From IMG/VR virus record IMGVR_UViG_3300042351_000809: DNA of 64,000 nt; one strand, 5' to 3'. Every line of letters begins with the position of its first letter. Position 1 is the first letter of the stretch. The notes beneath the pieces were generated by a model. That model worked only from the letters and a program-made list of their open reading frames with translations. It was not told the DNA's origin and made no database searches. This stretch comes from a virus. The translations under genes and the position numbers were made by a program. This document shows positions 9,031 to 60,848 of this stretch, piece by piece.

Positions 9031-9034
9031 ATTT

Positions 9035-30220: not shown

Positions 30221-30905
30221 AAATTTCTACTTCTCCATTTACAATGCACTTCTTAGCTTTGACTATAATGGAACGTTTAAGATTCTTTATTTGCTTGTAA
30301 CCGGGGGAACGATTTTTTTCAGTAGTCTTAAAACCCAATACTTTTGCCACTTCTTCTTCTCTTTTATTTCTTAGACAAAGCATCTCGTAAACAACCCACT
30401 CTGCTGGCTTTAATACTTTCTTTAGTGCTGACGATAAACTCTGAGTGCTTCTCAAAAGGTCAAAGCCTTCGTTTGTCATGTCATGAACTTCTTTAATATG
30501 ATTTTCGAGAGGAAGAGTTACCTTTGTATTGAAAGCGTCTTTTTTATTATTCTCCCAATGAGCATATAAGGGGCATTTCTTGCACTGTTCACCATATATT
30601 GAACAAGAGTCATCCCATTCTGCCGCCGCACACTTCAAACAAGGTCTAGCATAATTGCCATAGTTGTTTCTTATGATGTTCTTTATTTGATTAGAAATGA
30701 TAATGTTTAGCCAAGGAGCAAGAGGCTTCTTTGGATCATATAAAGTCCATTTTTTGTAAATATGAATCCTTAGTATCTGCTCAACGTCCTCGAAATCAAT
30801 CCAAGACAATGCAGCAAGGTTCCACTTGTTCTTGCGTTTGCGAATTTCTTCGTCTATTATAGCAATGTTCTTTTCAAATGATTCTTTTTGGACTTTATGA
30901 GCCAT
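30213..30905 (-). CDS. Phage sigma70-family-like transcription factor with Cys-rich insertion
   Basis: Region-2-like DFEDVEQ...YDPKKPLAPWL..II.NQIKN and region-4-like HTH EEEVAKVLG. Confidence 0.65.
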   Translation of the reverse strand: MAHKVQKESFEKNIAIIDEEIRKRKNKWNLAALSWIDFEDVEQILRIHIYKKWTLYDPKKPLAPWLNIIISNQIKNIIRNNYGNYARPCLKCAAAEWDDSCSIYGEQCKKCPLYAHWENNKKDAFNTKVTLPLENHIKEVHDMTNEGFDLLRSTQSLSSALKKVLKPAEWVVYEMLCLRNKREEEVAKVLGFKTTEKNRSPGYKQIKNLKRSIIVKAKKCIVNGEVEIYV

Positions 30906-31366: not shown

Positions 31367-31642
31367 ATGAAGTATTCGTTTAAAAATTACGAAAAAGTTG
31401 AGTATTTCATCAATTGGGTTAAACCTCCTAGAGGGTGCTATGGCATATGCGACTCTCCAGAGATGGAAAACCCAAAGATTAAAATTGACCCAACTCTAAC
31501 CAAGCAAAAAACGATCAATATTCTAATACATGAAGTATTACACGCATTCTTCTGGCATGAGTCCGAAACAAAAGTGACTAAATGCGCTAATACTTTATCA
31601 AGACTTATTCATCAAAGGATGAAGCAAAAGTTTAATGAATAA
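31367..31642 (+). CDS. Small zincin-like metalloprotein (HExxH)
   Basis: ILIHEVLHAFF motif. Confidence 0.6.
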   Translation: MKYSFKNYEKVEYFINWVKPPRGCYGICDSPEMENPKIKIDPTLTKQKTINILIHEVLHAFFWHESETKVTKCANTLSRLIHQRMKQKFNE

Positions 31643-32354
31643 TTGATTTATATTTAGTAATCTTATCAACGATAAAGCGAGTAATTCCACTTCTCATAAT
31701 ATCTTCTGGTCCAAGTTTAAAATATTGAATACCATGATCTTTGCTATCTTGATCTTGGAAGATATCACAAAATTCTTTAAAGCCAGACTTCTTGCCTAAG
31801 TCATTTTGCATGATGGTATCACCGCAAATAAACAGTTTGCTAAACTTGCCCATACGGGTAGCAGCAGTTACAAGAGAATCGAACATCATGTTCTGACCTT
31901 CATCCAAAATAACGGAATTAACATTGAAGGTATAGCCGCGAAGTAGAGAAACAGGATATGTTTTAATCCTTTCTTGCTTATTTAGTAATTCGATGCTGGA
32001 CTTATTTAGTAATTCTTCCAGCTTATCAAATAGAGGTACATTATAGAAGAAGGTTTTTTCGTCTAGATCGCCAGTTAAGAAGCCAGTTTGACCATCTGTG
32101 CTTTGAATTAGAGATCGGATATATACAATATCGGATATCTTTTTAGCTTTTAGTAGCTCTAATGAGCAATAAACGCTCAATAGCGTTTTAGCTGTGCCGG
32201 GAAGCCCATCAAGAATAATAATATTAGTGCTTTTGTCTAAAGCAGCAGCAATAATTTCCTCTTGTTTTGGGGTCCATTTTAATTTACGAATTTCGAAATC
32301 GTCTTTTACCTTGTCTTTTTGCGCGACATGTGGGGAATTATCTTTTTTTGACAT
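31632..32354 (-). CDS. phoH: PhoH-family ATPase
   Basis: GLPGTAKT Walker A, GFLTGDL, LLRGYTF, ILDEGQN, TRMG, GD..QND. Confidence 0.9.
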   Translation of the reverse strand: MSKKDNSPHVAQKDKVKDDFEIRKLKWTPKQEEIIAAALDKSTNIIILDGLPGTAKTLLSVYCSLELLKAKKISDIVYIRSLIQSTDGQTGFLTGDLDEKTFFYNVPLFDKLEELLNKSSIELLNKQERIKTYPVSLLRGYTFNVNSVILDEGQNMMFDSLVTAATRMGKFSKLFICGDTIMQNDLGKKSGFKEFCDIFQDQDSKDHGIQYFKLGPEDIMRSGITRFIVDKITKYKSIIH

Positions 32355-33616: not shown

Positions 33617-34057
33617 TCAGTCGGCCAGATTGGCGACGTTTTCCAACGCGAAGCAAAGGAACTGCGGTTCCCCCTTGTCGGGGCTATAGTCGCGAATGGT
33701 GGCGAGTTCCTCGGGGGTCGCTTCGCGGCCATCCACAAGGTAACGGGTGACCCGCTTGGCGGACGTAGGAACGGCGGCCAGATACAAGGCCCCGCTTTCC
33801 TTGTGCATGACCAACCCATCCTTGACCCAAGTGAACCACGGGGCCTTGCCAGCGGGGGCCTCGCCTGTGCGGGCCTCTAAAACGTTGGAGTATGTCTCAG
33901 GCCCCGCCACGGTGACCGTGATGCGGTGGTCGCGGGTCACGCGACCCAAGAGCGGGTTCAGGGGAACGCCAGCGCGGCCCCCCTTGTTCATTTTGTGTTC
34001 GCCAGTCAAGAGGATGGTGGCGAGGCGACCGGCGCGGATGGTGGTGGTGTCAATCAT
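33617..34057 (-). CDS. Hypothetical early protein, paralog A (GC-rich)
   Basis: 146 aa; colinear similarity to 35323-35760. Confidence 0.8.
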   Translation of the reverse strand: MIDTTTIRAGRLATILLTGEHKMNKGGRAGVPLNPLLGRVTRDHRITVTVAGPETYSNVLEARTGEAPAGKAPWFTWVKDGLVMHKESGALYLAAVPTSAKRVTRYLVDGREATPEELATIRDYSPDKGEPQFLCFALENVANLAD

Positions 34058-34280
34058 GATGCGTTGCTTTCTTAAAACGTCGCCGTGATTGGCGACAAGG
34101 AAAGACTCTCACGGGTCGCTTCCGTTGTCACCTAGAAAGTGAAAGAAAAGTGAAAAACCTTTCAGGGTCATGCATAGGGTCCGAAGCGCGTCAAGCCAAA
34201 AAGTGGAAAAAGATTGTCAAGGAAAAAGAGTTGCAAGAATCGGGGACTCCGTTTTCTGCAACTCTCCTTTGGAAAGAGAC

Positions 34281-34319
34281 TTGGCACGGTCCCTGCTGTC
34301 CTAGCAAGAGCCGTGCCAG
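34281..34319. promoter_or_regulatory. Convergent pair of sigma54-consensus (-24/-12) sites
   Basis: TTGGCACGGTCCCTGCT (+) and CTGGCACGGCTCTTGCT (-), GG-N10-GC spacing. Confidence 0.7.
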
Positions 34320-34331
34320 TCTAGCCTTGGG

Positions 34332-34589
34332 TCACTCTGCGAAAAGATCGGCCTTGGCGCGAGAGTGAGCCATGATGGCATGAGTCTTGCTCACATCCGT
34401 GGGGATGAAGGAAAGGCGGTAGGTCATGAGGTTCAGAGCGTCCTTGATTTCCTGCAACTGCCGCTTTCGACTAGCGACCAAGGAAGTCCTGTCTTCAAGG
34501 AACACGATGTCGGTTTCCAAGGCGACCATTCCGCCAATCAAGGCGGCGCGGACTTTGGTGGCTTGCTCTGCGGTGATGATGTTTTCCAT
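34332..34589 (-). CDS. Hypothetical early protein (MENIITAEQ...)
   Basis: Internal ATG downstream of the unit's promoter and leader hairpin. Confidence 0.65.
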   Translation of the reverse strand: MENIITAEQATKVRAALIGGMVALETDIVFLEDRTSLVASRKRQLQEIKDALNLMTYRLSFIPTDVSKTHAIMAHSRAKADLFAE

Positions 34590-34699
34590 GTTGTGTTTTA
34601 TAGTGTCGCCGTCATTGACGACGGGAAGACTTTCGCACGGATGCATTTTGATTGTCACCAACTTTCTCAAAGAATCTTTGAGTACCCAATCGAAAGCCC

Positions 34700-34884
34700 A
34701 GCACGTTTCATGCCAAGTCTAGGTTGGCATGCTCTTTGCTCCCCAGCATAGACTATGCCAAGTCCGCACTCCAGAGAGTTGCGAGAGTTGGGGTCTCCTT
34801 TTCTTGCAACTCTCGGTTTTCCGGTTGGCATGGCACTTGCTCCCCAGCACGAATCGTGCCAAGTCGGTTGGCATGGAACTTGCT
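34700..34884. promoter_or_regulatory. Six sigma54-consensus sites arranged symmetrically around 39-bp element copy 2
   Basis: TTGGCAYR-N4-(T/G/A)TGCT at 34700(-), 34724(+), 34745(-), 34825(+), 34846(-), 34868(+). Confidence 0.75.
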
Positions 34885-35056
34885 TCCCCTTATACTACTA
34901 TAAGCCATTTCTCACTAATGTTAGTGATAAATCCTTATATATATACAAAAAATCCCCTGTACTAGTACAGAGGATCTGAGGGTATTTGATATTTATCTAT
35001 TTAATGTTTAATGTTAGAGAAACAACCAAATAGGAATATCGCAATCAATAGTATAA

Positions 35057-35254
35057 TCATAGCTCGTCCCTATTGTATTTGTATTGCAATTTGGATAGGG
35101 CTTCTGTTATGTGTTGCTTCTTTTCGCTCCAAATAGAATGATCTGTTTTAATACTCTGACATGATTGTATTAGTTTATCGCATTCTTGTATAGCTTGCTC
35201 TAGTGCTATCTGCAAATGAACCATTTCAATATGAGTAAGAGAAGTGTCAGACAT
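35057..35254 (-). CDS. Hypothetical protein
   Basis: 65-aa ORF followed by hairpin at ~34947-34977. Confidence 0.55.
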   Translation of the reverse strand: MSDTSLTHIEMVHLQIALEQAIQECDKLIQSCQSIKTDHSIWSEKKQHITEALSKLQYKYNRDEL

Positions 35255-35322
35255 AGTGTTTATATATAAGGGTTTTAGTATTAAATGCGCGTTTATAGTA
35301 TTCGCGCCCCACTGTTTATCAA

Positions 35323-35760
35323 TTAGCCTTCTACGTTTACGACATTTTCAATTGCAATAGTGAGAAACTCGGCTGGCTCACTAGCTGGCTTGTACTTATA
35401 CAAGGTTTCTAGTTCTTCTTCTGTCATAGGGCGACCGTCTAATAAATATTCAATCTTACCAACATTGCTAGTAGGAATACCAGCGATATACAATTGGTTG
35501 GTCTGTTTATGAACAACCAGACCGTCTTTAATAAAACGAAACCAAGGCTCTTTACCAGCTATCTCATTACCCTTACGAGTTTGGATATTAGTATAAGTTT
35601 CCTCACCGGCAATTGTAATAGTAAAACGGTGATTCCTAGTAACACGCCCAAGGAAGGGATTAATAGCAATACCCTTGCGCCCACCTTTATTCATAGACAG
35701 CTCGCCCTGTAGTAGTATAGTGGCGATCTGACCGGCTTTGATAGTAGCAGTGTTAATCAT
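35323..35760 (-). CDS. Hypothetical early protein, paralog B (AT-rich)
   Basis: 145 aa; colinear similarity to 33617-34057. Confidence 0.8.
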   Translation of the reverse strand: MINTATIKAGQIATILLQGELSMNKGGRKGIAINPFLGRVTRNHRFTITIAGEETYTNIQTRKGNEIAGKEPWFRFIKDGLVVHKQTNQLYIAGIPTSNVGKIEYLLDGRPMTEEELETLYKYKPASEPAEFLTIAIENVVNVEG

Positions 35761-36062
35761 GTTGTTTATAAATAAGTGTTGCTGTTTATATAATTACCGA
35801 ACCGACGTTGATACCTTAGCACAGCCACGAATCCAGTAAACACTTTTCTTTAAGTATTTTTCATACCTAAACCGAGAGTTGCACGTTTTGGGGTCTCCGA
35901 AATCCGCAACTCTTTTTTGTTGACAACTTGTACATATATAAGAGAAGTCACTATTTGTTATTTGATCATTTATTATTTAATATTTGCTGATTTAATATTT
36001 AATGTTTGGATAAAAAAATCCCCGCTGTATTGCTACAACGGGGTTTTGTATTTATTACTATT

Positions 36063-36266
36063 TCACCAATCCGAATCTTGTCCAGTGGGGTCTTCGTCCC
36101 ACTCGCGTTGCCACTCAGAATGACAGGGCTGGCAAACCGCGCTCCGTGCCTTCGGGGGCATCAGAACGCTGCAACGGGCGCAATGGAAGCGCTCTGCGCC
36201 GTTTTCATCGATGACAGGGCAACCGCCAGCTTCGTGCCCACAACAAGGGAAGTCTTCGCAAGCCAT
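36063..36266 (-). CDS. Small Cys-rich protein (CEDFPCCGH; CxxC...CxxC)
   Basis: 67 aa; terminator hairpin at ~36012-36046. Confidence 0.65.
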   Translation of the reverse strand: MACEDFPCCGHEAGGCPVIDENGAERFHCARCSVLMPPKARSAVCQPCHSEWQREWDEDPTGQDSDW

Positions 36267-36282
36267 AGTGTGATATAGTGAT

Positions 36283-36486
36283 TTAGTTTTTTAGTCCGAG
36301 AGAGTGACAAACAGAAGCTAGTCTGCAATTGATTCTATCAAGCTCCAAAGCAATATCACTAGCAGAATGATAATTAGCATTTGTGATGTTATTGGCGCAA
36401 TTGTTAATTTGTTCAATGAGAGACTGCACCTCATGCGCGAGCGCGAGGGTGGCGGTGGCAGGGGCGGGGCAGGAAGAGGAACTCAT
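36283..36486 (-). CDS. Hypothetical protein (MSSSSCPA...)
   Basis: ATG 9 nt downstream of TTGTAT-16-TACCCT promoter. Confidence 0.55.
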   Translation of the reverse strand: MSSSSCPAPATATLALAHEVQSLIEQINNCANNITNANYHSASDIALELDRINCRLASVCHSLGLKN

Positions 36487-36657
36487 GGTGCCCAAAGGGT
36501 AGCACGGACTCATTATGATACAATTTTTTTGTGAGATTTTTTTAGGTAATCATTTCCGAGAGTTGCAAGAGTCGGGCACCCCGAAACCCGCAACTCTTTT
36601 TGTATATAAAAAAACCCCACTGTTTATCACAGCGGGGCTATTGTATTTGTTTAGCGT

Positions 36658-37074
36658 TTATTCATAATGTGGGCGAGGCTCCGCGCTATTGTCACACTCG
36701 CCCCGCACCTGCTCAATCGTGACCCATAGCTCGCCCCCGTCGCTCCACCCCGTGGGGATGTACCCCTCATCGTGGTACGCCGTGTCGCATTCCTCGCCCG
36801 GAAGCGCGGCCATCGCACGATACCGCGCAGGGGCTTCCTCGCGGTTTTCACGCTCTACCTCCACCTTGGCGTTTTCAAGCCAAGCCTCGGCGGCTTCCAT
36901 CGCGGGAAAGTAGATGGACCCTTCCAAGGTGTTGCGGGTGTACCACCAGCCACCCTCCTCCGGTCCACCGTAGTTCTGGCTGCGGCGGTACACGCTGACC
37001 CACGCGCCTTGCGGCACGTTGAATTCGGCGTGGGCTTCGATTTTTTCGATCAGGGACTGCATTGTTGATTTCAT
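36658..37074 (-). CDS. Phage protein with YGGPEEGGWWY motif (GC-rich)
   Basis: ATG at 37074, 7 nt after -10 box; terminator at ~36608-36639. Confidence 0.75.
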   Translation of the reverse strand: MKSTMQSLIEKIEAHAEFNVPQGAWVSVYRRSQNYGGPEEGGWWYTRNTLEGSIYFPAMEAAEAWLENAKVEVERENREEAPARYRAMAALPGEECDTAYHDEGYIPTGWSDGGELWVTIEQVRGECDNSAEPRPHYE

Positions 37075-37233
37075 CGTCCCTACCATAACAGGCGCACAAG
37101 TGAAATCAAGAGAAAATCGCACAAAGAGAGTTGCGAGATTTAGGCTCCCCGAATTCTGCAACTGTTTTTGTATAAAAAAACCCCCGCTATAGTAGTATAA
37201 CGGGGGCTTATCTGTTATTTATTTAAATAGTAT

Positions 37234-37452
37234 TTAAAAGATTTCGTTGCAAACTGAATTGTTTTGTTCTGTTCTAATATTAGCAATAGTGTGAAAGATA
37301 TCCAAAGCTTCTTCCCAAGTATTTAAATCAGAAACAAAATGAATCCAATCTTCTTTACTATAACATTCAACATAGACTTGATAACCATATCCTTTATTAT
37401 AATTATCTTCCGCCAGTTGCTTCAGTTGCTCAATCCATTTTGATTTATCCAT
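37234..37452 (-). CDS. Hypothetical protein (MDKSKW...)
   Basis: ATG 8 nt after TTGACT-16-TATCTT; terminator at ~37174-37207. Confidence 0.65.
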   Translation of the reverse strand: MDKSKWIEQLKQLAEDNYNKGYGYQVYVECYSKEDWIHFVSDLNTWEEALDIFHTIANIRTEQNNSVCNEIF

Positions 37453-37691
37453 AGGGCACCAAGATAGCAAAAAGAATGAAAAAGTCAATAGATTTGAGAG
37501 TTGCAAGAGTTAGGCTCCCCGAATTCTGCAACTCTTTTGGGCTTGACTTTTTTTTCTTCATTTGGTGAGCGATTTGTGTTGACTCTGAGGGCGAAGCCGC
37601 CCTTTGGTCTATTTGGGGGAGGTCTGGCAATATTTGCGATTATTTGAAATAATTTTTTGACAACCTCGACCAATCTGATACCGTAGGCACG

Positions 37692-37988
37692 ATGAAACCA
37701 GAAATTAGCGCAAGCATCCAACGCAAGTTCACCTTTGAGATCCAACTTGAAGATCGGTACGACGTTTCCGAGATCGAAGTCCTTGTGGGCTTTGAGTGGG
37801 ATTACGAGTGCAACCCTGACGAGATCCGAGGCACAGACTTCCTCGTCATCTCCGAAGTCATTTGGGATTGCGAAGGCTTCACTTGGGCAGAGGAGAAGGA
37901 GATCCAAGCCGCGATCTTCTCCCGCTACGAAGAGTGGACCCGTGAGACCGAAGAAGCCGAAAGAGAGGGTCGCTTGAACGTGGATTGA
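37692..37988 (+). CDS. Highly acidic small protein
   Basis: 98 aa, very D/E-rich; TTGACA-16-TACCGT-7-ATG. Confidence 0.7.
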   Translation: MKPEISASIQRKFTFEIQLEDRYDVSEIEVLVGFEWDYECNPDEIRGTDFLVISEVIWDCEGFTWAEEKEIQAAIFSRYEEWTRETEEAEREGRLNVD

Positions 37989-38006
37989 AAAGTCAAGAAG
38001 AAAATC

Positions 38007-38032
38007 ACCCCGCTACGGCGGGGCTTTTTTTT
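38007..38032 (+). terminator. Intrinsic terminator
   Basis: CCCCG-CTACGG-CGGGG followed by T-tract. Confidence 0.8.
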
Positions 38033-38127
38033 GAGAGTTGCAACTTTTGGGCACCCCGAATCCAGCAACTCTTTTTTGAGAAAAATTGTTTACAAGAGTC
38101 ACGGCCCGTGCGAGACTCTTCTCCGTA

Positions 38128-38403
38128 ATGAAAACACAACACGACAGCATCGATACCGCCAGCGACCTCCGCGACCTCATCGCGCAGACCCCCGAAGAGT
38201 TTGAGCCTTCTCGTCAAGACTCTGAGCCTTTGGTTGTGGTTGACGCGAAATCCTTCCGCGAAATGCGCGTGGCTCTGAAAATGTACTTGTTCGAAATAAA
38301 GTACTTGACACACTACCGCCCAGAGTACCGGGAGCAAGTCGCCAAAGAGGCTCAAGACCTCTTGGACAGAACGGAATACGATAAAGTCAAGAGAATTTAC
38401 TGA
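38128..38403 (+). CDS. Hypothetical protein (MKTQHD...)
   Basis: Between elements 7 and 8 with own promoter and terminator. Confidence 0.7.
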   Translation: MKTQHDSIDTASDLRDLIAQTPEEFEPSRQDSEPLVVVDAKSFREMRVALKMYLFEIKYLTHYRPEYREQVAKEAQDLLDRTEYDKVKRIY

Positions 38404-38522
38404 AAAATTCACCCCGCTACGGCGGGGCTTTACAGTTGCGCGTTTCGGGCACCCCGAAGCTCGCAACTCTTTTTTTTCTTTTTTCTTTTGACGAGTGGGC
38501 TGGTCTGGGCTAAGGTTTGGGC

Positions 38523-38723
38523 ATGCAAAAAACGATTGAGTTTTACAACCGCGAAGTCTACGGCAATGTGCGCGAGTACATCGCAAATGAAAATGACGCA
38601 AACATTGTTTACCGCTTGACGGGAAAGAAAACGATCACTAGTGTGGAGCGCGAGTTGATTCGTGACCTCTCCGGTGGTCTGATTCACTTCAAACAAATTT
38701 TGCCCCCTTCGAAGTCGAAGTGA
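38523..38723 (+). CDS. Hypothetical protein (MQKTIEF...)
   Basis: TTGACG-17-TAAGGT-6-ATG. Confidence 0.7.
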   Translation: MQKTIEFYNREVYGNVREYIANENDANIVYRLTGKKTITSVERELIRDLSGGLIHFKQILPPSKSK

Positions 38724-38744
38724 GGGCGGGTTAAGGCAAGCGGC

Positions 38745-38848
38745 ATGGTACGCAGGGAGATCCTGCGGCGGGTTAGTTGAACCTTTAGAAACACTGCTTT
38801 TTCGGTTAGATTCGTGTCAAATGGTACGCAGGGAGATCCTGCGGCGGG
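38745..38848 (+). repeat. 28-bp direct repeat containing a hairpin
   Basis: ATGGTACGCAGGGAGATCCTGCGGCGGG at 38745-38772 and 38821-38848. Confidence 0.9.
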
Positions 38849-39002
38849 GTTTTTTGCAAAGAGTTTGTTGTGATTCTCTTTGAAGGTTTTAGCCCCCATG
38901 AAACAGACACGAATCTTTCCGAGACTTGCAGCAATCCGCCACCCCAAATCCTGCAACTCTTTTCCTTTGACGGTTTTCCTAAATCTGATAATGTTTCCCC
39001 GT

Positions 39003-39395
39003 ATGAAAAACAAATCACTTGTGTTTGCCCTTATTTGCTCATTCTCTTTGACAACCTACGGGAAAGTCACTGAAGAACTATTTTTCAAAGCCCTTGGCAA
39101 AGTCGAGGCTTCTGGTAATCCAAACGCCGTCAACAAAAGAGAACAAGCTTTGGGTATTTATCAAATTCGATTTGCTTATTTCAAAGATTCTGGCGTAAAA
39201 GCCAACCATAAAGACGTATTTGACCCCAACGTGGCAAAAATGGTTTGCAAGGCTTATTTCGCCCGATACGAGAAAAAGGCTCTTGACAATGGAGACTGGG
39301 AAGTGTTAGCTAGATTGCACAACGCCGGTCCCAACTGGCGCAAGAATAAATCATCTACTGATAAATACTGGAATAACATTAAAAAGAACCTGTAA
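39003..39395 (+). CDS. Lysozyme-like / lytic transglycosylase with signal peptide
   Basis: Hydrophobic N-terminus; VEASGNPNA (catalytic Glu motif), GIYQI, ARLHNAGP. Confidence 0.7.
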   Translation: MKNKSLVFALICSFSLTTYGKVTEELFFKALGKVEASGNPNAVNKREQALGIYQIRFAYFKDSGVKANHKDVFDPNVAKMVCKAYFARYEKKALDNGDWEVLARLHNAGPNWRKNKSSTDKYWNNIKKNL

Positions 39396-39505
39396 TAATA
39401 TGAGCAACAAGACTTTTGATAGAATTATAAATGCTGTAATTGTATCACTCACTATTGCTACTGTTGTTAGTGTTACTGTGGTTTACAACATCATCTTTTA
39501 ATAAA

Positions 39506-39787
39506 ATGGAACTCACTTTTCTTTCTGACCCCGGCCACGGTTGGCTTCGTGTTCCTCATAAATTACTTGAAGACTGGAATATTGATATCTTAATATCAGA
39601 GTATAGTTATAGAACAAGAGACTTTGCTTACTTAGAGGAAGACTGTGATGCTTCTATCTTCATTGACGAAGCCAAGAAAAGGAATTACAAATACTCTGTT
39701 CATTACAAATTGATTAAAGACTTCGATTACTATCTCAAAAACGTTGGTAATTACTATAGATTTAACAATAACCTAAGAACAGCATGA
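39506..39787 (+). CDS. Phage protein with DPGHGWL...YLEEDCD motif
   Basis: Recognisable motif; start placed at MELTF. Confidence 0.7.
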   Translation: MELTFLSDPGHGWLRVPHKLLEDWNIDILISEYSYRTRDFAYLEEDCDASIFIDEAKKRNYKYSVHYKLIKDFDYYLKNVGNYYRFNNNLRTA

Positions 39788-39972
39788 GTGGCGAACTAAA
39801 GATAACAATACAAGAAGTTGTAGACCTTCGTGTGGCATTAAATAATGCAGAACGCCGTATCAAAGAGTTAATGGCATTAAAGCATGAAGACTGGCATAAA
39901 TTGTATCATTTAGATATTGATTCAATAGAAAAAGGAAAAGACGCTCTTAAATCTATTATACAAAGAGATTAA
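39784..39972 (+). CDS. Hypothetical protein
   Basis: ATGA overlap with upstream gene; terminator at ~39978-39997. Confidence 0.6.
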   Translation: MSGELKITIQEVVDLRVALNNAERRIKELMALKHEDWHKLYHLDIDSIEKGKDALKSIIQRD

Positions 39973-40083
39973 ATCACACCCGCTTCGGCGGGTTTTTCTT
40001 TGAGACTTGCAGACTCTGGGCACCCCGAATGCTGCAACTCTTTTTGTTTGAAACTCGCGCCGCTTGTGATTACCTTGTCCCCG

Positions 40084-40389
40084 ATGAAACTGCTGACGAA
40101 ACAACTCGCCGAAAAACTCAACAAGGCCGGTTCTGACGGCATGGTCCCTATTTGCAAGCTTTTCACTCCGTGGAGTGACGCTACTTGGTTGATCACTGGG
40201 ATCGAAGGTGGCATCCTTTACGGGTTCGCTGACTTGGGCATGGGTTGCGTTGAATGGGGCAGTATCGCTTCCGTGGAAGAATTGGAAGCAATCAAGGGAC
40301 CGCTTGGAATGACCATTGAGCGCGATTTGTACTGGCAACCCAAGGAAGGCGTGAACTACTTTGAGCTTGAAACCCTCGCGGCTATTTAA
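40084..40389 (+). CDS. DUF2958-family protein
   Basis: KLFTP...ATWLIT...GFADLGMG..EWG...EL...GPLGM.IERDLYW. Confidence 0.8.
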   Translation: MKLLTKQLAEKLNKAGSDGMVPICKLFTPWSDATWLITGIEGGILYGFADLGMGCVEWGSIASVEELEAIKGPLGMTIERDLYWQPKEGVNYFELETLAAI

Positions 40390-40391
40390 TT

Positions 40392-40574
40392 ATGAGAGAA
40401 TCTGTTTATGCTGCCGAATGTTGGGCTACTGATAAATCAAAAGAAGAAATCCAATCAGAAATCAATTACTTACAAAACCTTTGGAAGATTAAACACCCAA
40501 ACCCTTTTCCTAAAAACGCACACTATAGTTATATCAGGATTGTAACGCTAAAAGAAATCCTTAAGAATAAATAA
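40392..40574 (+). CDS. Hypothetical protein
   Basis: 60-aa ORF in operon. Confidence 0.55.
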   Translation: MRESVYAAECWATDKSKEEIQSEINYLQNLWKIKHPNPFPKNAHYSYIRIVTLKEILKNK

Positions 40575-40575
40575 T

Positions 40576-40845
40576 ATGACTCTCAAAAACTTAATTGATC
40601 ATGGTTTGTTAAATAATACAAGCATGATTTGTATTGCTGATTGTGAAATAGTTCCGAGTTTTCAAATTGAAGATGATTTTCTAAAATTGCACAGAAAGAA
40701 TGAGCGAGTTTTGCTTTTTCCATTAAATAATGAAGTAATCTTTGATGGACTGTTTCTCACTGTGGAAGATGAATTGGAAACAGAATACGATTTGTCTTTC
40801 CTCACTTGTACTACTATAGATCCTGAATCGTTTAAGAATAAATAA
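40576..40845 (+). CDS. Hypothetical protein
   Basis: 89-aa ORF in operon. Confidence 0.6.
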   Translation: MTLKNLIDHGLLNNTSMICIADCEIVPSFQIEDDFLKLHRKNERVLLFPLNNEVIFDGLFLTVEDELETEYDLSFLTCTTIDPESFKNK

Positions 40846-40847
40846 AT

Positions 40848-41021
40848 ATGAAATACAAAGTCGCGCTATACCAAGAGATTTATACTTATTTAGAAATTGA
40901 AGCTAAATCAGAAGATGAAGCAAGAGATTTAGTCTTAAGCGGAGAATTTGATGATGCTAACACTATTGATAACGAAGTAAAAGAGTCTGAAATCATTGGT
41001 TGTGAAGAAATTAAAGAATAA
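40848..41021 (+). CDS. Small acidic protein (MKYKVALYQE...EAKSEDEA)
   Basis: 57-aa ORF found by hand; fills the gap in the operon. Confidence 0.6.
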   Translation: MKYKVALYQEIYTYLEIEAKSEDEARDLVLSGEFDDANTIDNEVKESEIIGCEEIKE

Positions 41022-41022
41022 T

Positions 41023-41217
41023 ATGAAATCCCTCACACTTCAACAGATACAAGCTAACTTAAAAGAATGGATGGGTGATAGTATAAAGCCCGATACCAGA
41101 AGCGGAAAACTTGCAGAGCGTACTTACATAAAGGCTCTTTTAGATACAGGCGCAAAAGTTCCACCGATTTGCATTATACTACTACAGAGTGGGCGTAGTA
41201 TTGTAAACTTTAAATAA
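41023..41217 (+). CDS. Hypothetical protein
   Basis: Start MKSLT; terminator GCCCCAC-TTCG-GTGGGGT follows. Confidence 0.6.
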   Translation: MKSLTLQQIQANLKEWMGDSIKPDTRSGKLAERTYIKALLDTGAKVPPICIILLQSGRSIVNFK

Positions 41218-41328
41218 ATAACACGCCCCACTTCGGTGGGGTCTTAGAGTTGCAGACTTTGGGCACCCCGAATGACGCAACTCTTTTTTTTTGACTCTTT
41301 TTCCCACTCAGTGCTACTGTGTCCGCGT

Positions 41329-42201
41329 ATGAATAACACAGTTAAAAACGCTATCCGCCACCTCGTTTGCAAAGCCTACGACGCTTTTGCACAAAACAAA
41401 ACAGACATTGCCGTCACTTCTCTCCCCGGCTCTTCGTGGGAGTTTGAGAAATATGTGATAAATCACAAAGCTTATGGTGATACATTCGGGAATGTATATT
41501 CTCTTCAAATGTCACTCTTTGAATGTAACTCACAAGAATATCAAAGCAATCTTCGCCCCATTGCTACTATCTTTCCCCATAATAAGACAAGTGCCTACAT
41601 ACTTAACCACTCTGGCGTTACATACAAAAACGAATACATAAACGCCAATAGCGTTAAATCTCTCAAATCAAAGAACATTTTCGCATGGTTTGACTTCTGT
41701 GGTAACCCTACAGAACATAACCTTGATTTGATTAAAACAGCCAAAGACAAAACTGTTACTTTCATTTTTACTTTCAATACTCACTGGCGGTGTGATAGTA
41801 ACATTAGCCCGATTGTTATCAATACGGCTAACGAATATAACAAAGGATACGCTATTCAATGTTATCTGTTGACTCTGGCAATAGAGCTTGGTTTGTCACT
41901 AGTCTGGTCGTTTGAATATGTGTCAAATCAAAATCCCATGATGACTATCTGTGTCAGTAATGACATGAATGTTATCACAAATCGCTCTTTGCAGGTTAAA
42001 GACTTCATCACTCACGAAAAGAAAGACAATAAGGCTGGTGTTAATAAGACTAAATTGGTTCTCAATAAACGCGAATTGAGCGCCGTCTATGCGGATTTGA
42101 AAGAGCGCGTTAGTGATAAAGAGATCTGTGAGAAGCATAGTATTAGTACAGGCACACTTGCCGCTTGTAAAGCTTGGATGACTATGTGGAAAGCTTGGTA
42201 A
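41329..42201 (+). CDS. Hypothetical protein (AWFDFCG motif; possible methyltransferase-like fold with C-terminal HTH-like end)
   Basis: 290 aa; TTGACT-18-TACTGT-8-ATG; function tentative. Confidence 0.6.
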   Translation: MNNTVKNAIRHLVCKAYDAFAQNKTDIAVTSLPGSSWEFEKYVINHKAYGDTFGNVYSLQMSLFECNSQEYQSNLRPIATIFPHNKTSAYILNHSGVTYKNEYINANSVKSLKSKNIFAWFDFCGNPTEHNLDLIKTAKDKTVTFIFTFNTHWRCDSNISPIVINTANEYNKGYAIQCYLLTLAIELGLSLVWSFEYVSNQNPMMTICVSNDMNVITNRSLQVKDFITHEKKDNKAGVNKTKLVLNKRELSAVYADLKERVSDKEICEKHSISTGTLAACKAWMTMWKAW

Positions 42202-42214
42202 TACAATAACGACT

Positions 42215-42235
42215 GGGGGGCTTCGGCCCCCCTTT
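42215..42235 (+). terminator. Intrinsic terminator
   Basis: GGGGGG-CTTCGG-CCCCCC-TTT. Confidence 0.8.
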
Positions 42236-42346
42236 AGAGTTGCGAGAGTTGGGCACCCGGAATCCTGCAACTCTCTGGTTGTTTATAAACAAAAACCCCC
42301 TAGTGTTAAACACTAGAGGGTGCTTTATTTGATATTTGATCTGTTA

Positions 42347-42541
42347 TTATTTAATGTTTTCGGTTTTATTATTAGTAAACCTATAGACTTTAAAACGAAT
42401 ATTATTAAGGTCTTTTCTAATCTTCGTCAATTCAGCACGAATCTTTTCGCGTCTGTTTAGCAATAACCTTACAGACTTTTTCATCTCCTTTAGGTTATTG
42501 AGTTTAGTTTGCAACTTAGCTATTTGCTTATCTTGTGTCAT
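42347..42541 (-). CDS. Basic coiled-coil hypothetical protein
   Basis: 64 aa; terminator at ~42291-42321. Confidence 0.55.
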   Translation of the reverse strand: MTQDKQIAKLQTKLNNLKEMKKSVRLLLNRREKIRAELTKIRKDLNNIRFKVYRFTNNKTENIK

Positions 42542-42600
42542 TTTTGTTTCCTTCTATTATTATTGTTAATAGCAATACTACCAATAGTAGTATAAGCATT

Positions 42601-43233
42601 TTAATGTAATTTATAACTAACGTTTGTCACTGATTTATCCCAACAGGCGCGGCAATTGAGACATTTATTATCTTGATTGGAGGCAGGACAATTGAATGTT
42701 TTATCTTTTGACACACCAGAAGTCGTTAATCCTAATATCTTAGCAATGCCACTAGGCGCATTGCCATTTATCATTAGGGAAGAAAGACGAATAGTGAGAT
42801 TGGAAGGAATATCACCAAATTGTTTCTTGTATTGAGTAACAAATGAATATTCCCTAGTCGGCAACCAGAATTTAATATGGGGAAGATTGATAGCGATCTG
42901 ACAAATCTTTGTCAAATGTTCTACAGATTGAATATCACCACTATCATGCCAACGAAAGAATCCACTCTTTTCTTTTGTAGCAATAGCAATAGTCATTGCT
43001 TCAACCCATTCGGGTTTATTAATAGAGTCAAATCGCTTTTGTAAAGCGTTTCTGACATTGGGCATATTATAGAAACCCTTTAATGCATAACACTTAGAGC
43101 AAACGCTATTCTTAATAGACACTAGCTTTCCGCCCGTTTTGCAGTACTTTGCCGGGATCGAATAGGAAAGACACGGCATTTTTGAGGGCGCAGAGAGTCC
43201 ACCAACGAGGTCAAGGGCAAGGTCAAGATTCAT
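42601..43233 (-). CDS. GP88-like Cys-rich protein
   Basis: C..G......SVC..CYA.KG, RWHDSGD, WLPTRE, C..CRACW motifs; start MNLDL after promoter. Confidence 0.7.
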   Translation of the reverse strand: MNLDLALDLVGGLSAPSKMPCLSYSIPAKYCKTGGKLVSIKNSVCSKCYALKGFYNMPNVRNALQKRFDSINKPEWVEAMTIAIATKEKSGFFRWHDSGDIQSVEHLTKICQIAINLPHIKFWLPTREYSFVTQYKKQFGDIPSNLTIRLSSLMINGNAPSGIAKILGLTTSGVSKDKTFNCPASNQDNKCLNCRACWDKSVTNVSYKLH

Positions 43234-43431
43234 CGTGGAAAGGTTAGCGCAAAGGGCAAACGGTGTCAACAGATTCGGTGCGATTTTCTTTGAGAGTTGC
43301 GCGATTCGGGGTCTCCATTTTCTGCAACTCTCTATGAGTATGTAGTTATATAACAATAAACCCCGATCTATCAAATCGGGGCTTATTTCGCTTATTTGTC
43401 TTTAATCTTGTTATTATTTAGAAACAAGCAC

Positions 43432-43629
43432 TTAAAGTATTTTATAATTAAAACTATTAACACACCAACCAGTTCTATCACTAATCATGTCAGCTAATTC
43501 ATCATCCAAAGCCCCTTCCATTATTATTAAAGAATTATCAATTTCAAACTCAAAAGAAGTTGGCAAGTTCTCTACCTTACCATCTTCTTCATCAATGTCA
43601 TAAGATATATCAAATACAGAGACTATCAT
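43432..43629 (-). CDS. Small acidic protein
   Basis: 65 aa, ISDRTGWCV..F motif. Confidence 0.6.
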   Translation of the reverse strand: MIVSVFDISYDIDEEDGKVENLPTSFEFEIDNSLIIMEGALDDELADMISDRTGWCVNSFNYKIL

Positions 43630-43738
43630 ATTAATATATTCTTATTTACTTAATTCTGATAAATAGATAGCCAAAGTAATTAAAACAACAGCAGGAATCA
43701 GATAAGTCAAAAACCTTTTGTACATATTTAATTGCATA

Positions 43739-44002
43739 TTAGTGAAAGAAGATTCGTGATTCGTCTTTGAAAGTTTTCTCTTTGCCAGCTTCGTCCCATT
43801 CGATACCGTATGTCAAACCTTCTTCGACATGATGTTTATGTAAATAATTGAAACCTTTGTATTGCTTTGCTTCCATCAGCAGGTCCGTCACGAAGAACTG
43901 GAGAGTTCTGCGCTGGATGATCGCTTCGTTTTTGCTGGTGCAAAAGAAGTGATTGGCTTTCAGTTTGACTGATTCAAGGCTAACCGTTTTACGTTTTGTC
44001 AT
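43739..44002 (-). CDS. Hypothetical protein
   Basis: TTGATT-16-TACTAT-7-ATG. Confidence 0.7.
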   Translation of the reverse strand: MTKRKTVSLESVKLKANHFFCTSKNEAIIQRRTLQFFVTDLLMEAKQYKGFNYLHKHHVEEGLTYGIEWDEAGKEKTFKDESRIFFH

Positions 44003-44147
44003 CGGGGAAATAGTAATTCATGCCCAGAGGAAATCAAAGGAAAAAGAGTTGCGAGAAGTGGGCACCCCGGATGGCGCAAGTCTTTGGAGACGCAAAAAGG
44101 GGCACCCCGTAGGATGCCCCGCGCTGGCCGTATTTGGCGATCTGGCG

Positions 44148-45008
44148 TTAGTTGCTGGCGAGCTTCTTGAACTCAGCCTCAATCAGGCTGGCCTTGTTCA
44201 GGGTGACCAAGGTGCCCCGGTTGATGCGTTGCGCCAGTTCGTAGGAGGTAGGCTCGACCTGATGGGAGGTGAACTGCGTCACGGCGTTGTACAGGCTCCA
44301 GAGGCTGCGGTTCTTGTCCTCGCGGTGCGTCGGATCATTCCAGATGATCTTGATTTTATCCACGTTGCGGTCAGCGATCACCTTGGCCTTGGTGAGCTTG
44401 TCGAGGATAATGTGGCCCTGCTCCTGCTTTATAGAGCGTTCAGCCAAGCGGCTGAAAACGGTGGTGCTTTCCTTGAAGCCCTCGACCGCGCCAGCCACAA
44501 CGTCCACAAGGCGGGAAACGTCGAGCTTGTCGGAGTGCTTCTGGGTGAGGCTGAACTCATCCTGAAGCGTCTTCAGGCCGTTGGTGCAAACGAGGCGAAG
44601 GATGCCCATCTCGAAAGAGACGCGACAGGTGCGGTCGAAGGAGTTGTTCAGGATCAGGCGCAAACCAAGGTCATCCCCAACCTTGGGGAGCTTCACCAGT
44701 TGGTTCTTGAAGTCATACTGGACGTACACCCGCGCACCGTCGCGCATGGAGTACTCCTTGCGGGTGAACTCGCCCAACTTGTTGTCCGCGAAAGCGGTTT
44801 CGACAGTATCCATCAGGGAGCGGTTCTGAACGAGAGTGTAGCGTTCAGTGCAAACCCCAAGCACCTGCTTGCTGTCGGTGCGGCGATTGGCGAGCCAACC
44901 AGAGGCTTCGCCATCAGGGGTGAGGAGCGGGACAGTCTCGACCGTGTAGTCGAGCAAGCTATCGGCGCGAGTGGTGGCAGTGGCGGGGGTGACGTTGATT
45001 TCGGTCAT
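44148..45008 (-). CDS. DUF932/DUF945-family protein (GC-rich)
   Basis: RTD...LG.....Y..VQN, NSFD, RLVCTNGL, H, SLWSLYNAVT motifs. Confidence 0.8.
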   Translation of the reverse strand: MTEINVTPATATTRADSLLDYTVETVPLLTPDGEASGWLANRRTDSKQVLGVCTERYTLVQNRSLMDTVETAFADNKLGEFTRKEYSMRDGARVYVQYDFKNQLVKLPKVGDDLGLRLILNNSFDRTCRVSFEMGILRLVCTNGLKTLQDEFSLTQKHSDKLDVSRLVDVVAGAVEGFKESTTVFSRLAERSIKQEQGHIILDKLTKAKVIADRNVDKIKIIWNDPTHREDKNRSLWSLYNAVTQFTSHQVEPTSYELAQRINRGTLVTLNKASLIEAEFKKLASN

Positions 45009-45330
45009 AAGTGCAGTGTTGATGTTAAGTGTTAACTGACGGACCAGAGGTTAGACGGCAATCAAATCAGGCGCAACTCCTTTTTCGCTTTTTCTTCAGA
45101 TTTTTTTCGACTGAGAGTTGCTGGCGGCGGGGTGCCCTTTTTCTGCAACTCTTAATAATAAATAATTCTTGACAAATCTATTCTCTTTCTATCTATCTCT
45201 CCCCCTATTAAAACACACCAATCTCTTATTTCGCTTATTTGCTGGTATTATTTCTAATATTTAAGAATAAAATTAACAATATTAGGTAATAAAAAAGCCC
45301 CCTTTATTTAGGAGGCTGGTGTTTATTATT

Positions 45331-60847: not shown

Positions 60848-60848
60848 G

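Follow-up and report, generated by a model that had tools for sequence, protein, structure and literature searches.

A 39-bp palindromic element separates the early gene cassettes of an uncultivated freshwater phage lineage

Introduction

The window analyzed here, a 64-kb stretch of phage DNA taken at its full length, carries a block of small genes interrupted by 15 copies of a near-palindromic 39-bp element, which raises the question of what such an element does. The preliminary description of this DNA offered two answers: that the copies are recombination sites of an integron- or shufflon-like system, or that they are binding sites for a dimeric or tetrameric protein. We compared the element and the genes that it separates within the window and among related genomes.

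Results

The 39-bp element

Searching the window for AGAGTTGC-N23-GCAACTCT with at most two arm mismatches, we found 15 copies, where dinucleotide shuffles give a chance expectation of 0.01. The copies start at 34227, 34775, 35875, 36559, 37127, 37497, 38034, 38432, 38922, 40003, 41246, 42236, 43293, 44045 and 45114, with 370-1243 bp between neighbors, exactly as first described. A weight matrix made from 59 unique element copies exceeds 12 bits at the same 15 sites alone; thus, within the 64 kb, both pattern and matrix bear out the earlier claim that no copy lies outside the 11-kb block. A lone half-site is found at 46131.

Each copy has the geometry 8-7-9-7-8 and is a near-true palindrome containing two 19-bp half-sites of the form AGAGTTGC-RRGAWTY-GGGG. 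The N7 had been called variable and unlike loxP or dif sites, which is only partly correct, since it is semi-conserved and reads RRGAWTY inward from either end. The core follows the pattern GGGG-W-CCCC and differs among copies (GGGCACCCC, GGGGTCTCC, AGGCTCCCC). Because the element is near-palindromic, a common orientation of all copies is only weakly defined, and copies 1, 2, 13 and 15 fit better when inverted. The copies and their neighboring signals are as follows.

34227-34265, E1, A-type, better inverted; left, TTGACA -35-like box at 5 nt, facing p146; right, sigma54-like palindrome, then the w1 3' end
34775-34813, E2; TGGCAY-N5-YTGCT inverted pairs on either side
35875-35913, E3; left, w2 promoter (minus strand); right, T-run and orphan plus-strand TTGACA
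36559-36597, E4; left, w3 promoter at 35 nt; right, w4 terminator 36613-36639
37127-37165, E5, right arm GCAACTGT; left, w4 promoter at 17 nt; right, w5 terminator 37178-37209
37497-37535, E6, divergent point; minus-strand promoter 8 nt left; plus-strand TTGACT 7 nt right
38034-38072, E7; left, w6 terminator 38008-38023; right, w7 promoter TTTACA at 16 nt
38432-38470, E8, left arm ACAGTTGC; left, w7 terminator abutting; right, w8 promoter at 17 nt
38922-38960, E9, left arm AGACTTGC, core CGCCACCCC; w9 promoter 6 nt right
40003-40041, E10; left, w9 terminator 39978-39993; right, w10 promoter at 6 nt
41246-41284, E11; left, w10 terminator 41226-41241; right, w11 promoter at 6 nt
42236-42274, E12, convergent point; terminators 42215-42232 and 42295-42321 on either side, no promoter
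43293-43331, E13, better inverted; left, w12 promoter at 23 nt; right, w13 terminator 43361-43381
44045-44083, E14, right arm GCAAGTCT; left, w13 promoter at 7 nt; right, w14 terminator 44099-44120
45114-45152, E15, last copy, core inverted; left, w14 promoter at about 37 nt; right, orphan TTGACA, then tRNA cluster

Gene units between the elements

The elements always separate one unit's terminator from the promoter (or terminator) of its neighbor, and nearly every copy has a terminator on one side and a promoter on the other. A unit consists of a sigma70-type promoter, a first gene, up to four more small genes and an intrinsic terminator, in agreement with the preliminary description; the promoters at the elements have the form TTGAC-N16-18-TAnnnT. 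The first gene is leaderless in most units, its ATG lying 6-9 nt past the -10 box in most promoters. The distance from the -35 box to the arm is 6-8, 16-17 or 23 nt in A-type arrays and mostly 7-10, 16-18, 27 or 39-41 nt in B-type arrays (a few at 21-23 and 62-72 nt), these counts being phylogenetically non-independent. Between copies 6 and 12 the genes are on the plus strand; to either side, left of copy 6 and right of copy 12, they are on the minus strand. This confirms the reported flips in orientation; the placement of copy 12 between two terminators was confirmed as well.

33617-34057, minus, p146, left of E1; 63% GC, paralogue of p145
34266-34774, minus, w1; 85-aa helical protein, 34332-34589
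34814-35874, minus, w2; p145 35323-35760, p65 35057-35254, terminator 34950-34977
35914-36558, minus, w3; p76 36283-36513, Cys-rich 67-aa protein 36063-36266, terminator 36020-36043
36598-37126, minus, w4; 138-aa GC-rich protein, 36658-37074
37166-37496, minus, w5; 72-aa AT-rich gene, 37234-37452
37536-38431, plus, w6 and w7; genes 37692-37988 (w6) and 38128-38403 (w7)
38471-38921, plus, w8; leaderless 66-aa gene 38523-38723, then a duplicated hairpin
38961-40002, plus, w9; secreted SLT-type transglycosylase 39003-39395, genes 39506-39787 and 39784-39972
40042-41245, plus, w10; DUF2958 gene 40084-40389 and four small AT-rich genes
41285-42235, plus, w11; 290-aa protein (p290), 41329-42201
42275-45113, minus, w12, w13 and w14; GP88 42601-43233 and a second gene 42347-42541 (w12), genes 43739-44002 and 43432-43629 (w13), DUF932 gene 44148-45008 (w14)

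For p146, no family or fold match was found. The C-terminus of the w11 protein looks helix-turn-helix-like by eye.

The array in related genomes

The array also occurs in roughly 20 contigs from freshwater metagenomes or IMG/VR, as 12-15 contiguous copies conserved in number and position. This is not a T4-like phage: its best TerL match among cultured phages is 24% identical. Related contigs of 25-49 kb are 16-30% complete according to CheckV, which implies a full genome of about 150 kb, of which about 40% is visible here.

In close relatives, whose TerL is 95-99% identical, the 8-7-9-7-8 element and its core recur with other arms, which read ATAGTTTY..AAAACTAT (B-type). A census of 286 elements gave 177 A-type, 109 B-type and no hybrids, with 59 and 63 unique versions, respectively. 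The arm family is usually uniform inside one array; L060, L044, L039, L040 and L061 are mixed. Arm positions 1, 3, 5, 6 and 8 are invariant and position 7 is constant in all but one of 118 half-sites, and the arms stay conserved while the flanks of the elements diverge by 10-30% across relatives. The element is the sole sequence that otherwise unrelated units have in common. Judged from this sequence evidence, it is a real and strongly selected cis-acting DNA site.

Exchange of cassettes among relatives

Comparison of about 35 related contigs shows that whole units are gained or lost, replaced by other alleles, relocated and inverted, mostly from element to element. The w5 cassette is present or absent as a whole, and loss of w5 or of x6 leaves exactly one element behind. 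Unit w1 occurs in every A-type array that reaches its slot and is missing from B-type arrays. Replaced alleles are 35-45% identical overall: those of w6 and w7 (39-45% identical) occur in all four combinations, and w11 has a 35%-identical counterpart (x4). The contents of w3 form two separate cassettes in G2, and L003 has an unrelated AT-rich 79-aa gene in place of w4. The w4 unit (p138) occupies another slot in G2 and G4, making two slots in total. Likewise, the DUF2958 unit (w10) precedes the SLT unit in G1-G3 and follows p290, inverted, in G4; overall it is found in three different slots or orientations. In B-type arrays, w2 is flipped as a whole, from one bounding element to the other. According to the preliminary description, identical cassette order and orientation in relatives would refute the recombination model; we observed that both differ. 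Among all A-type arrays, cassette order is collinear.

Some elements are themselves chimeric. L032 E8 joins the left part of L026 E8 to the right part of L026 E9, L013 E5 and L061 E1 are further cases, and the parental halves match the two flanking cassettes. Alignment breakpoints lie within 30 nt of elements in 29% of cases against 15% expected, an approximately two-fold enrichment, and several indels between the window and L003 break at gene boundaries inside cassettes. Four-gamete violations are few and fall at the left-flank/left-half and core/right-half boundaries, and the apparent crossovers are not confined to one fixed point.

Half-sites and folding

Most copies fold at -7 to -12 kcal/mol (z about -4); the E9 hairpin reaches merely -2.9 kcal/mol, yet E9 is conserved. 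The arms are perfectly complementary in both arm families, which equally suits a hairpin or cruciform bound by a protein. We looked for covariation between mirror positions across the element copies and found none overall: mirror-column pairing is 77.8%, compared with 78.9% in shuffles, and 481 of 500 shuffles pair at least as well. Weak positive covariation (z about 2.6) is seen for the core pairs 16-24 and 18-22 of B-type copies, B-type positions 8 and 32 pair only at the chance rate, and the switch from A to B alters mirror positions 2/38 and 7/33 together. Uncompensated G-to-C changes at position 2 or 4 occur in 22 of 118 A-type half-sites, and orthologous copies inherit them. Of the 15 window copies, 10 have a T-run after the right arm; B-type copies lack this run, as do copies with no plus-strand promoter. 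The element matches no Rfam family. Because mirror covariation is absent overall, the dyad comprises two independently conserved 19-bp half-sites, which favors duplex recognition by a symmetric protein over a hairpin.

Searches for a reader protein, a recombinase and host copies

Among the window ORFs scanned by domain we found no integrase, resolvase/invertase or transposase, as the preliminary description had stated; the only recombinase hint among them was a sub-threshold zinc-ribbon match. No Pfam DNA-binding domain was detected in any array gene scanned, and no gene tracks arm type cleanly in the 34 kb common to A-type and B-type genomes. Neither a RAYT nor a transposase was found. The element lacks both attC-like core boxes and stem covariation. 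A scan of one genome for each of 185,579 prokaryotic species gave just 14 matches, all singletons, with no bacterial genome holding multiple copies; thus, the element is probably not a host regulon site.

Discussion

We consider the element to be primarily a protein-read operator or insulator site with a second role as crossover linker for cassette shuffling, and give this reading a probability of about 0.5. The existence of two distinct arm types that share geometry and core counts in favor of a sequence-specific reader, and of the two functions first proposed, the dimeric or tetrameric binding site is the better supported primary one. Several observations weigh against this reading. Mixed A/B arrays need two readers or one tolerant reader, homologous exchange over about 39 bp at 70-85% identity is inefficient, breakpoint enrichment near elements is merely about two-fold with some indels intra-cassette, and the array genes scanned yielded no binding protein.

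The crossover role resembles that of the promoter-early stem-loops (PeSLs) of the T4-type phages RB49/phi1, PST and nt-1, for which homologous recombination between modules with mini-circle intermediates has been proposed (PMC2839356; PMC4122927). PeSLs are likewise short conserved intergenic modules, each made up of a strong sigma70-like early promoter and a terminator stem-loop, and they flank small accessory genes of unknown function that are inserted, deleted and replaced between related phages in a plastic region. In contrast, the present phage is not T4-like, and its separate 39-bp palindrome lies between a terminator and a promoter that themselves vary, in one contiguous array of 12-15 copies with two never-hybridizing arm families and with units that also invert. 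The operator role recalls the stoperators of cluster A mycobacteriophages (L5 gp71 and relatives), which number more than 20 in L5, silence both initiation and elongation, and diverge in site and repressor specificity between related phages; these are 13-bp, asymmetric, monomer-bound sites found genome-wide, with an orientation that follows transcription (PMC9283540, PMC6550527). Both systems place many copies of one site in short intergenic gaps, protein binding being inferred here, whereas our element is a 39-bp dyad restricted to one block, with a polarity unlinked to gene direction. Arrays of integron attC sites are similar in that small, mobile gene cassettes are bounded by imperfect palindromes with conserved outer repeats and variable interiors, and in that a repeat family may be particular to one array. 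attC sites measure 57-141 bp, carry RYYYAAC/GTTRRRY boxes and are read as a folded single strand with stem covariation; integron cassettes usually lack promoters and face one way, the IntI gene adjoins the array, and chromosomal integrons have homogeneous attC families. Neither the size, boxes and covariation of attC, nor promoterless co-oriented cassettes, nor an adjoining IntI were seen here.

The most direct rival is a dedicated site-specific recombination site of a phage integron- or shufflon-like system, whose recombinase gene would lie in the portion of the genome not seen here; this enzyme would attach to the inverted arms and, by strand exchange within or next to GGGG-W-CCCC, excise, insert and invert cassettes. 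Cassettes do move and invert as element-bounded units, the chimeras L013/L026 E5, L061 E1 and L032 E8 fit exchange inside the core or at its margin, arm-specific recombinases would give the observed lack of A/B hybrids despite mixed arrays, the uniform arm families recall those of chromosomal integrons, and the idea keeps some probability, as no more than about 40% of the genome can be seen. We nevertheless regard it as improbable, given the lack of a recombinase domain among the ORFs scanned, the odd site length, core variation that would block tyrosine-recombinase exchange between most pairs, strict A-type collinearity, four-gamete violations at two different boundaries, and cassettes that own their promoters. 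Thus, the recombination proposal of the preliminary description holds for element-bounded gain and loss, replacement, relocation, inversion and chimeras, while its integron/shufflon form is disfavored by these points together with the missing attC boxes and stem covariation, the use of both orientations and the scattered crossovers. Somewhat less probable still is a purely regulatory or insulating operator with no role in exchange, whose boundaries coincide with those of cassettes because joints survive in intergenic DNA. The intra-cassette indel breaks, the limited breakpoint enrichment and the few four-gamete violations agree with it, but chimeric elements whose halves match both flanking cassettes, whole-unit relocation and inversion from element to element, and the single element left after loss of w5 or x6 do not.

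That the element works as an ssDNA or RNA hairpin or a cruciform, with arms conserved to keep the stem, is quite unlikely; as such it might serve as an additional terminator, as a signal for processing or priming, or as a nuclease target. Fold energies, complementary arms that switch together at 2/38 and 7/33, the weak B-type core covariation and the T-runs are what it would explain. It is opposed by the overall absence of covariation, arm variants that are uncompensated yet stably inherited, a stem that would hold a 7x7 unpaired interior, the barely folding E9, the restricted occurrence of the T-run and the lack of an Rfam match, and the element lies outside the predicted transcripts, past the terminator and ahead of the promoter. 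A selfish miniature repeat (REP-, MITE- or homing-site-like) spread within the array would likewise be a short palindrome with inverted termini in intergenic DNA only, but it is very unlikely indeed: every copy lies in one 11-kb block with none elsewhere in 64 kb, copy number and positions are conserved across relatives, and we found no RAYT, transposase or multi-copy host genome.

Under the operator-and-linker reading that we prefer, a symmetric dimer or tetramer, probably phage-encoded, would read the duplex element via its two 19-bp half-sites and affect neighboring transcription signals, for instance by switching the whole early block co-ordinately or by insulating it. Units would be exchanged by general homologous recombination between elements, and an excised circle could re-enter at any other element, in either orientation because the site is palindromic. 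The units resemble the morons of lambdoid and other phages, which are also autonomous promoter-gene-terminator units with a base composition unlike the surrounding genome; morons, in contrast, are scattered singly and have no common delimiting repeat. The array described here brings together about 14 early, autonomous "moron" units; the phage lineage that carries it is uncultivated and comes from fresh water.

Occurrence and specificity of the element

The array at 34227-45152 had been described as 15 copies of a 39-bp dyad with an 8-7-9-7-8 geometry, and a pattern search with AGAGTTGC-N23-GCAACTCT, allowing no more than two arm mismatches, returned exactly the same 15 starts. The chance expectation for this arm pattern is 0.01 on average, as determined from dinucleotide shuffles of the window. 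The statement in the preliminary description that no copy lies outside these 11 kb also held, since a weight matrix derived from the 59 unique element copies located no further site above a cut-off of 12 bits in the 64 kb. The observation was correct as made, and its extent is considerably greater than was visible from the sequence alone. Exact-arm scans recovered it in 2 IMG/VR contigs and approximately 16 metagenome contigs, for a total of 121 element occurrences (59 unique sequences), and the names of the array-bearing metagenome contigs point to lakes and other freshwater. We refer to the arms of the window elements (AGAGTTGC/GCAACTCT) as A-type, and to a second arm family found in close relatives (ATAGTTTY/AAAACTAT) as B-type.

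A scan of prokaryotes (one genome per species, 185,579 species) produced just 14 unrelated single-copy matches, which is chance level, indicating that the element is not the operator of a sampled host regulon. A search of Rfam with E values of up to 1 yielded tRNAs and noise, with no family on the element. The element length is fixed at 39 bp and the copies are spaced 370-1243 bp apart with genes in between. This gene-filled spacing, as opposed to 25-40 bp, and the lack of an Rfam CRISPR-DR match on the element led us to reject a CRISPR repeat or solitary repeat unit. A REP/RAYT system was rejected because the copies cluster in a single block, the search for a transposase was negative, and singleton matches are all that bacterial genomes contain. 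We likewise rejected a sigma54 promoter inside the element, where GGCAC and TGCA are 13 nt apart and not 10 (GG-N10-GC; TGGCAC-N5-TTGC); motifs with true sigma54 spacing adjoin the element, and none lies within it. One of these, TGGCAY-N5-YTGCT, has the exact sigma54 spacing and occurs 16 times in the window against 3.9 expected. Nine of the 16 fall within the 600 bp at 34282-34884, where inverted pairs form palindromes of 37-39 bp around the first two elements. In relatives (L003, L013, L026, L251 and others), a single such motif is found 6-7 nt upstream of many elements, oriented into the element, with the adjacent gene lying behind it.

Phage context of the array

The window contains the following landmark genes:
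26328-28169, large terminase (TerL)
31632-32354, PhoH

Together with a cement protein, an ERCC4 nuclease, a sigma70-region-2-like ORF, seven tRNAs that adjoin the array on its right and two giant ORFs, these genes identify the window as phage DNA. A near-identity search of cultured phages gave no match to the window, and no cultured phage has a TerL more than 24% identical, the best matches being Bacillus siphoviruses. The giant ORFs, of 2606 and 2599 aa, are adjacent at 1210-16834 and probably encode giant tail fibres, judging from local matches to cell-wall-anchor fibre proteins and to bd2133 of Bdellovibrio (E = 1.5e-13). Their resemblance to Bdellovibrio adhesive fibre proteins led us to reject them as a virion RNA polymerase of the kind that uses hairpin promoters in N4-like and crAss-like phages. 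The product of a 230-aa ORF at 30213-30905, which is 94-100% identical between phages of the two arm types, has a sub-threshold match to Sigma70 region 2 (E = 4.8e-5), making it a candidate phage sigma factor. Five YopX-domain paralogues lie in tandem at 59687-61772 on the minus strand.

The G+C content of the array region is 39-48%, against 32-42% in the rest of the window, and that of single array genes spans 29% to 63%. Across 34000-45200, G+C shifts sharply between and within cassettes (the gene at 36283-36513 goes from 68% to 36%, 5' to 3'), and promoter-proximal cassette genes tend to be GC-rich and distal ones AT-rich.

Anatomy of the cassettes

Reading of the flanks revealed a recurring order of intrinsic terminator, element and promoter at nearly every copy. 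Every unit is equipped with a promoter and a terminator of its own, in agreement with the promoter-gene-terminator units first proposed, and the orientation switches that had been placed at copies 6 and 12 are present:
Copies 7-11, plus-strand units: upstream GC-rich hairpin and T-run, ending 0-60 nt before the left arm
Copies 7-11, plus-strand units: -35 box (TTGAC) 6 or 16-17 nt after the right arm, spacer of 16-18 nt, -10 box TAnnnT
Copies 3-5, 13 and 14, minus-strand units: identical order on the opposite strand
Copy 6: promoters on both sides, divergent
Copy 12: terminators on both sides, convergent

In the window, 6-10 nt separate the -10 box from the downstream ATG of the first gene; in most promoters of relatives the distance is 6-9 nt. 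This indicates that the first genes of the units are leaderless. No Shine-Dalgarno sequence is seen at first genes, for example those at 38523, 39003, 40084, 41329, 43233 (minus strand) and 44002 (minus strand), and first genes are leaderless in relatives too. With a terminator before it, a promoter after it and leaderless first genes, the element lies outside the predicted transcripts. The element itself was rejected as an intrinsic terminator, given that separate canonical terminators precede it; a T-run occurs at the element only where a plus-strand promoter follows, and none occurs at B-type copies.

Counting only promoters with a leaderless ATG behind them, the distance from the arm to the start of the -35 box is 6-8, 16-17 or 23 nt for A-type elements, and mostly 7-10, 16-18, 27 or 39-41 nt for B-type elements, with a few at 21-23 and 62-72 nt. 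These distance classes are approximately one helical turn apart, with the qualification that the counts include orthologues and Rayleigh statistics therefore overstate the significance.

The cassette genes are small and mostly without assigned function. When array genes were compared with Pfam and PHROGs, the only exceptions were a secreted SLT-type transglycosylase, DUF2958, GP88 and DUF932. At 35917-36050, a conserved plus-strand TTGACA right after the third element is followed by about 100 nt of AT-rich sequence and a bidirectional terminator, an arrangement lacking an ORF that might represent an orphan promoter or a small RNA. At 38735-38860, 3' of the gene in the eighth cassette, a hairpin motif (core GGTACGCAGGGAGATCCTGCGGCGGG) occurs twice, about 80 nt apart, with a T-run after the second only.

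The dyad as two probable half-sites

Both halves of the element read one consensus, AGAGTTGC-RRGAWTY-GGGG, and the question is whether this symmetry is read in duplex DNA or as a folded stem. A hairpin or stem-forming site keeps some weight, since the discrete, internally matched arm types would also follow from a stem requirement. However, mirror columns pair in 77.8% of cells among the 59 unique A-type copies, compared with 78.9% in shuffles, and every measure of covariation is at or below that of shuffles. Arm variation takes the form of a G-to-C substitution at position 2 or 4 in 22 of 118 half-sites; it is never compensated, and orthologous copies across different phages inherit it. Copy 9 is conserved despite folding at only -2.9 kcal/mol, and in B-type copies neither positions 8/32 nor the interior show a preference for pairing. 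Taken together with the shared half consensus, these results favour half-sites conserved independently of each other over a stem, and suggest a putative binding site at which two like half-sites would be recognized in duplex DNA. The arm sequence AGAGTTG (positions 1-7) recurs at positions 10-16, in the left interior, of many A-type copies. This repetition, not evident in B-type copies, hints that the A-type element might comprise four sub-sites, two direct and two inverted.

A second arm family and the search for a reader protein

B-type arrays were found by fetching TerL relatives with 10-kb flanks. Their carriers are close relatives, with the TerL 95-99% identical and the backbone 83-98% identical in nucleotides. 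The arrays hold 12-14 elements that keep the 8-7-9-7-8 geometry and the core GGGSWCCCC. Over all loci there are 177 A-type elements, 109 B-type elements and no A/B hybrid elements. Mixed arrays do occur (L060, with the order A,B,B,A,B,B, as well as L044, L039, L040 and L061), and an intermediate arm, AGAGTTTC, is seen rarely. A scan of viral contigs with the B-type arms alone (14 AT-rich bases) gave only chance singletons among the matches listed, and the flanks fetched for more distant relatives (TerL 66-67% and 85% identical) contain no comparable repeat. That the arms fall into separate types, each matched within the element, speaks for readers that recognize symmetric sites by their sequence. 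A palindrome, AGTGATAAATCACT, lies about 5 nt past the right arm of many B-type elements (L196, L251, L233, L234, L252), and a related stretch is present in the window near 34925.

A presence/absence and identity screen of the 34 kb shared by A- and B-type genomes flagged only the first cassette, w1, which is confined to A-type arrays, and the SLT allele; apart from these, no gene in the 34 kb tracks arm type. Helix-turn-helix and repressor families gave no match in the window, which covers less than the whole genome. Two paralogues, of 146 aa (33617-34057) and 145 aa (35323-35760), are about 54% identical, differ in G+C (63% vs 41%) and occur as a pair in all related arrays. The AF2 model of the 145-aa protein is confident (pLDDT 87) and has no Foldseek match; VIA scores are weak and SH3/Tudor-like (Z 5.5), and the model suggests that this protein may have a new small beta-rich fold. 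The AF2 model of w1 is a helical hairpin of low confidence, and neither structure model revealed a DNA-binding fold.

Exchange of cassettes among relatives

Slot order is collinear among A-type arrays, and slot content differs.

Differences in slot content among A-type arrays
Cassettes w5 and x6: present or absent as entire units, with exactly one element left behind
Slot 4: window gene swapped for an unrelated gene in a relative
Slots 6, 7 and 11: alleles only 35-45% identical, all combinations found

Promoter-distal genes are also gained or lost inside cassettes. The elements themselves can be chimeric: element 8 of contig L032 consists of the left part of element 8 and the right part of element 9 of L026, and L013 element 5 and L061 element 1 are chimeras of like kind. 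L061 also carries a complete B-type element, imported along with x4, a cassette holding a 35%-identical allele of w11. In comparisons of A- with B-type arrays and of B-type arrays with one another, the unit encoding the 145-aa protein and p65 is inverted over its whole length between the elements that bound it, with a promoter region 81-93% identical right up to the element, and the p138 unit can precede or follow the Cys67/p76 unit. The unit with DUF2958 follows the SLT unit in the window, L003 and L064, precedes it in G1-G3, and lies inverted after p290 in G4, keeping its own promoter and terminator at each position. Thus, cassette order, content and orientation differ among relatives with joints largely at the elements, and the whole-unit gain and loss, allele swaps, relocation, inversion and chimeras constitute the behaviour of element-bounded mobile units.

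Mode of exchange

We favour homologous exchange between elements as the mode by which units are exchanged. Exchange between two elements would excise a cassette as a circle, the circle could re-enter at another element, and the palindromic nature of the element would let the unit re-enter in either orientation. Excision and re-entry by homologous recombination, by way of mini-circles in infected cells, have been proposed for the PeSLs in RB49/phi1 (PMC2839356; PMC4122927). Alignment breakpoints within 30 nt of an element are enriched only about two-fold, and several indels sit at gene boundaries. Four-gamete violations are divided between the element's left edge and the border of core and right half, the events being too few to locate a crossover.

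It is possible instead that arm-specific recombinases, one for A-type and one for B-type sites, excise the promoter-gene-terminator units and reinsert them either way round. The mobility of element-bounded units and the chimeras are consistent with the recombination sites that had been suggested; attC traits are absent, and no integrase or recombinase domain was detected in the window ORFs scanned, which represent less than half of the genome. Since related contigs of 25-49 kb are rated only 16-30% complete, most of the genome is unseen. We consider it unlikely, at roughly one chance in six, that the array is a recombinase-driven cassette system on a 39-bp palindromic site, an integron-like platform for early anti-host genes. 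The other suggestion, a protein-binding site, agrees with the two like half-sites and the matched arm types, and the window search contributed no helix-turn-helix or repressor match to it. Each of the two original interpretations is therefore partly right.

Comparison with known systems

In what the system does, PeSLs of T4-type phages are closest. As in PeSLs, a terminator and a sigma70-like early promoter flank the accessory ORFs, here at nearly every copy, and relatives differ by indels and replacements with joints in the modules (slot comparison, chimeras, inversion, relocation). Unlike in PeSLs, the conserved unit stands apart as a palindrome that is repeated in an array and comes in two arm families, and the carrier is not a T4-type myovirus with hyperplastic regions, as its divergent TerL indicates. 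As a multi-copy intergenic protein site, the closest parallel is the stoperator, which is 13 bp long, asymmetric, monomer-bound and genome-wide (PMC9283540, PMC6550527). The present element is instead a 39-bp dyad with a weak polarity that is independent of gene direction.

Integron attC sites are 57-141 bp long, have R''/L''-L'/R' boxes (RYYYAAC...GTTRRRY) and are recognized as a folded strand; the cassettes are promoterless, co-oriented and read from a common Pc, with the IntI tyrosine recombinase encoded beside the array. In contrast, the element is invariably 39 bp long, neither arm type fits an RYYYAAC...GTTRRRY box, and stem changes are not compensatory. The units have their own promoter and terminator and lie in two orientations, and no adjacent integrase was found in the window ORFs scanned.

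Significance

The finding is one of modular shuffling of phage regulatory cassettes, known in kind and new in form; the chance that the array forms a new site-specific cassette platform is modest. In phages, anti-defence and host-takeover genes turn over fastest in the accessory or 'moron' regions, and to our knowledge PeSLs of T4-type phages are the main source of what is understood about the mechanics of this turnover. The array provides a second, independent and cleaner case, in which one 39-bp palindrome, apart from promoter and terminator, marks each boundary in an array of 12-15 units, and dozens of natural variants record the insertion, loss, allele swap, relocation and inversion of entire units. 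The two non-hybridizing arm families offer a genetic handle for finding the reader protein, and the combination of terminator, insulating site, promoter and leaderless gene is a natural template for expression units that are modular and portable. Should a dedicated recombinase take part, the array would represent a new class of viral cassette platform, and such a recombinase-driven system, if true, would be unlike integrons in site, polarity and cassette design.
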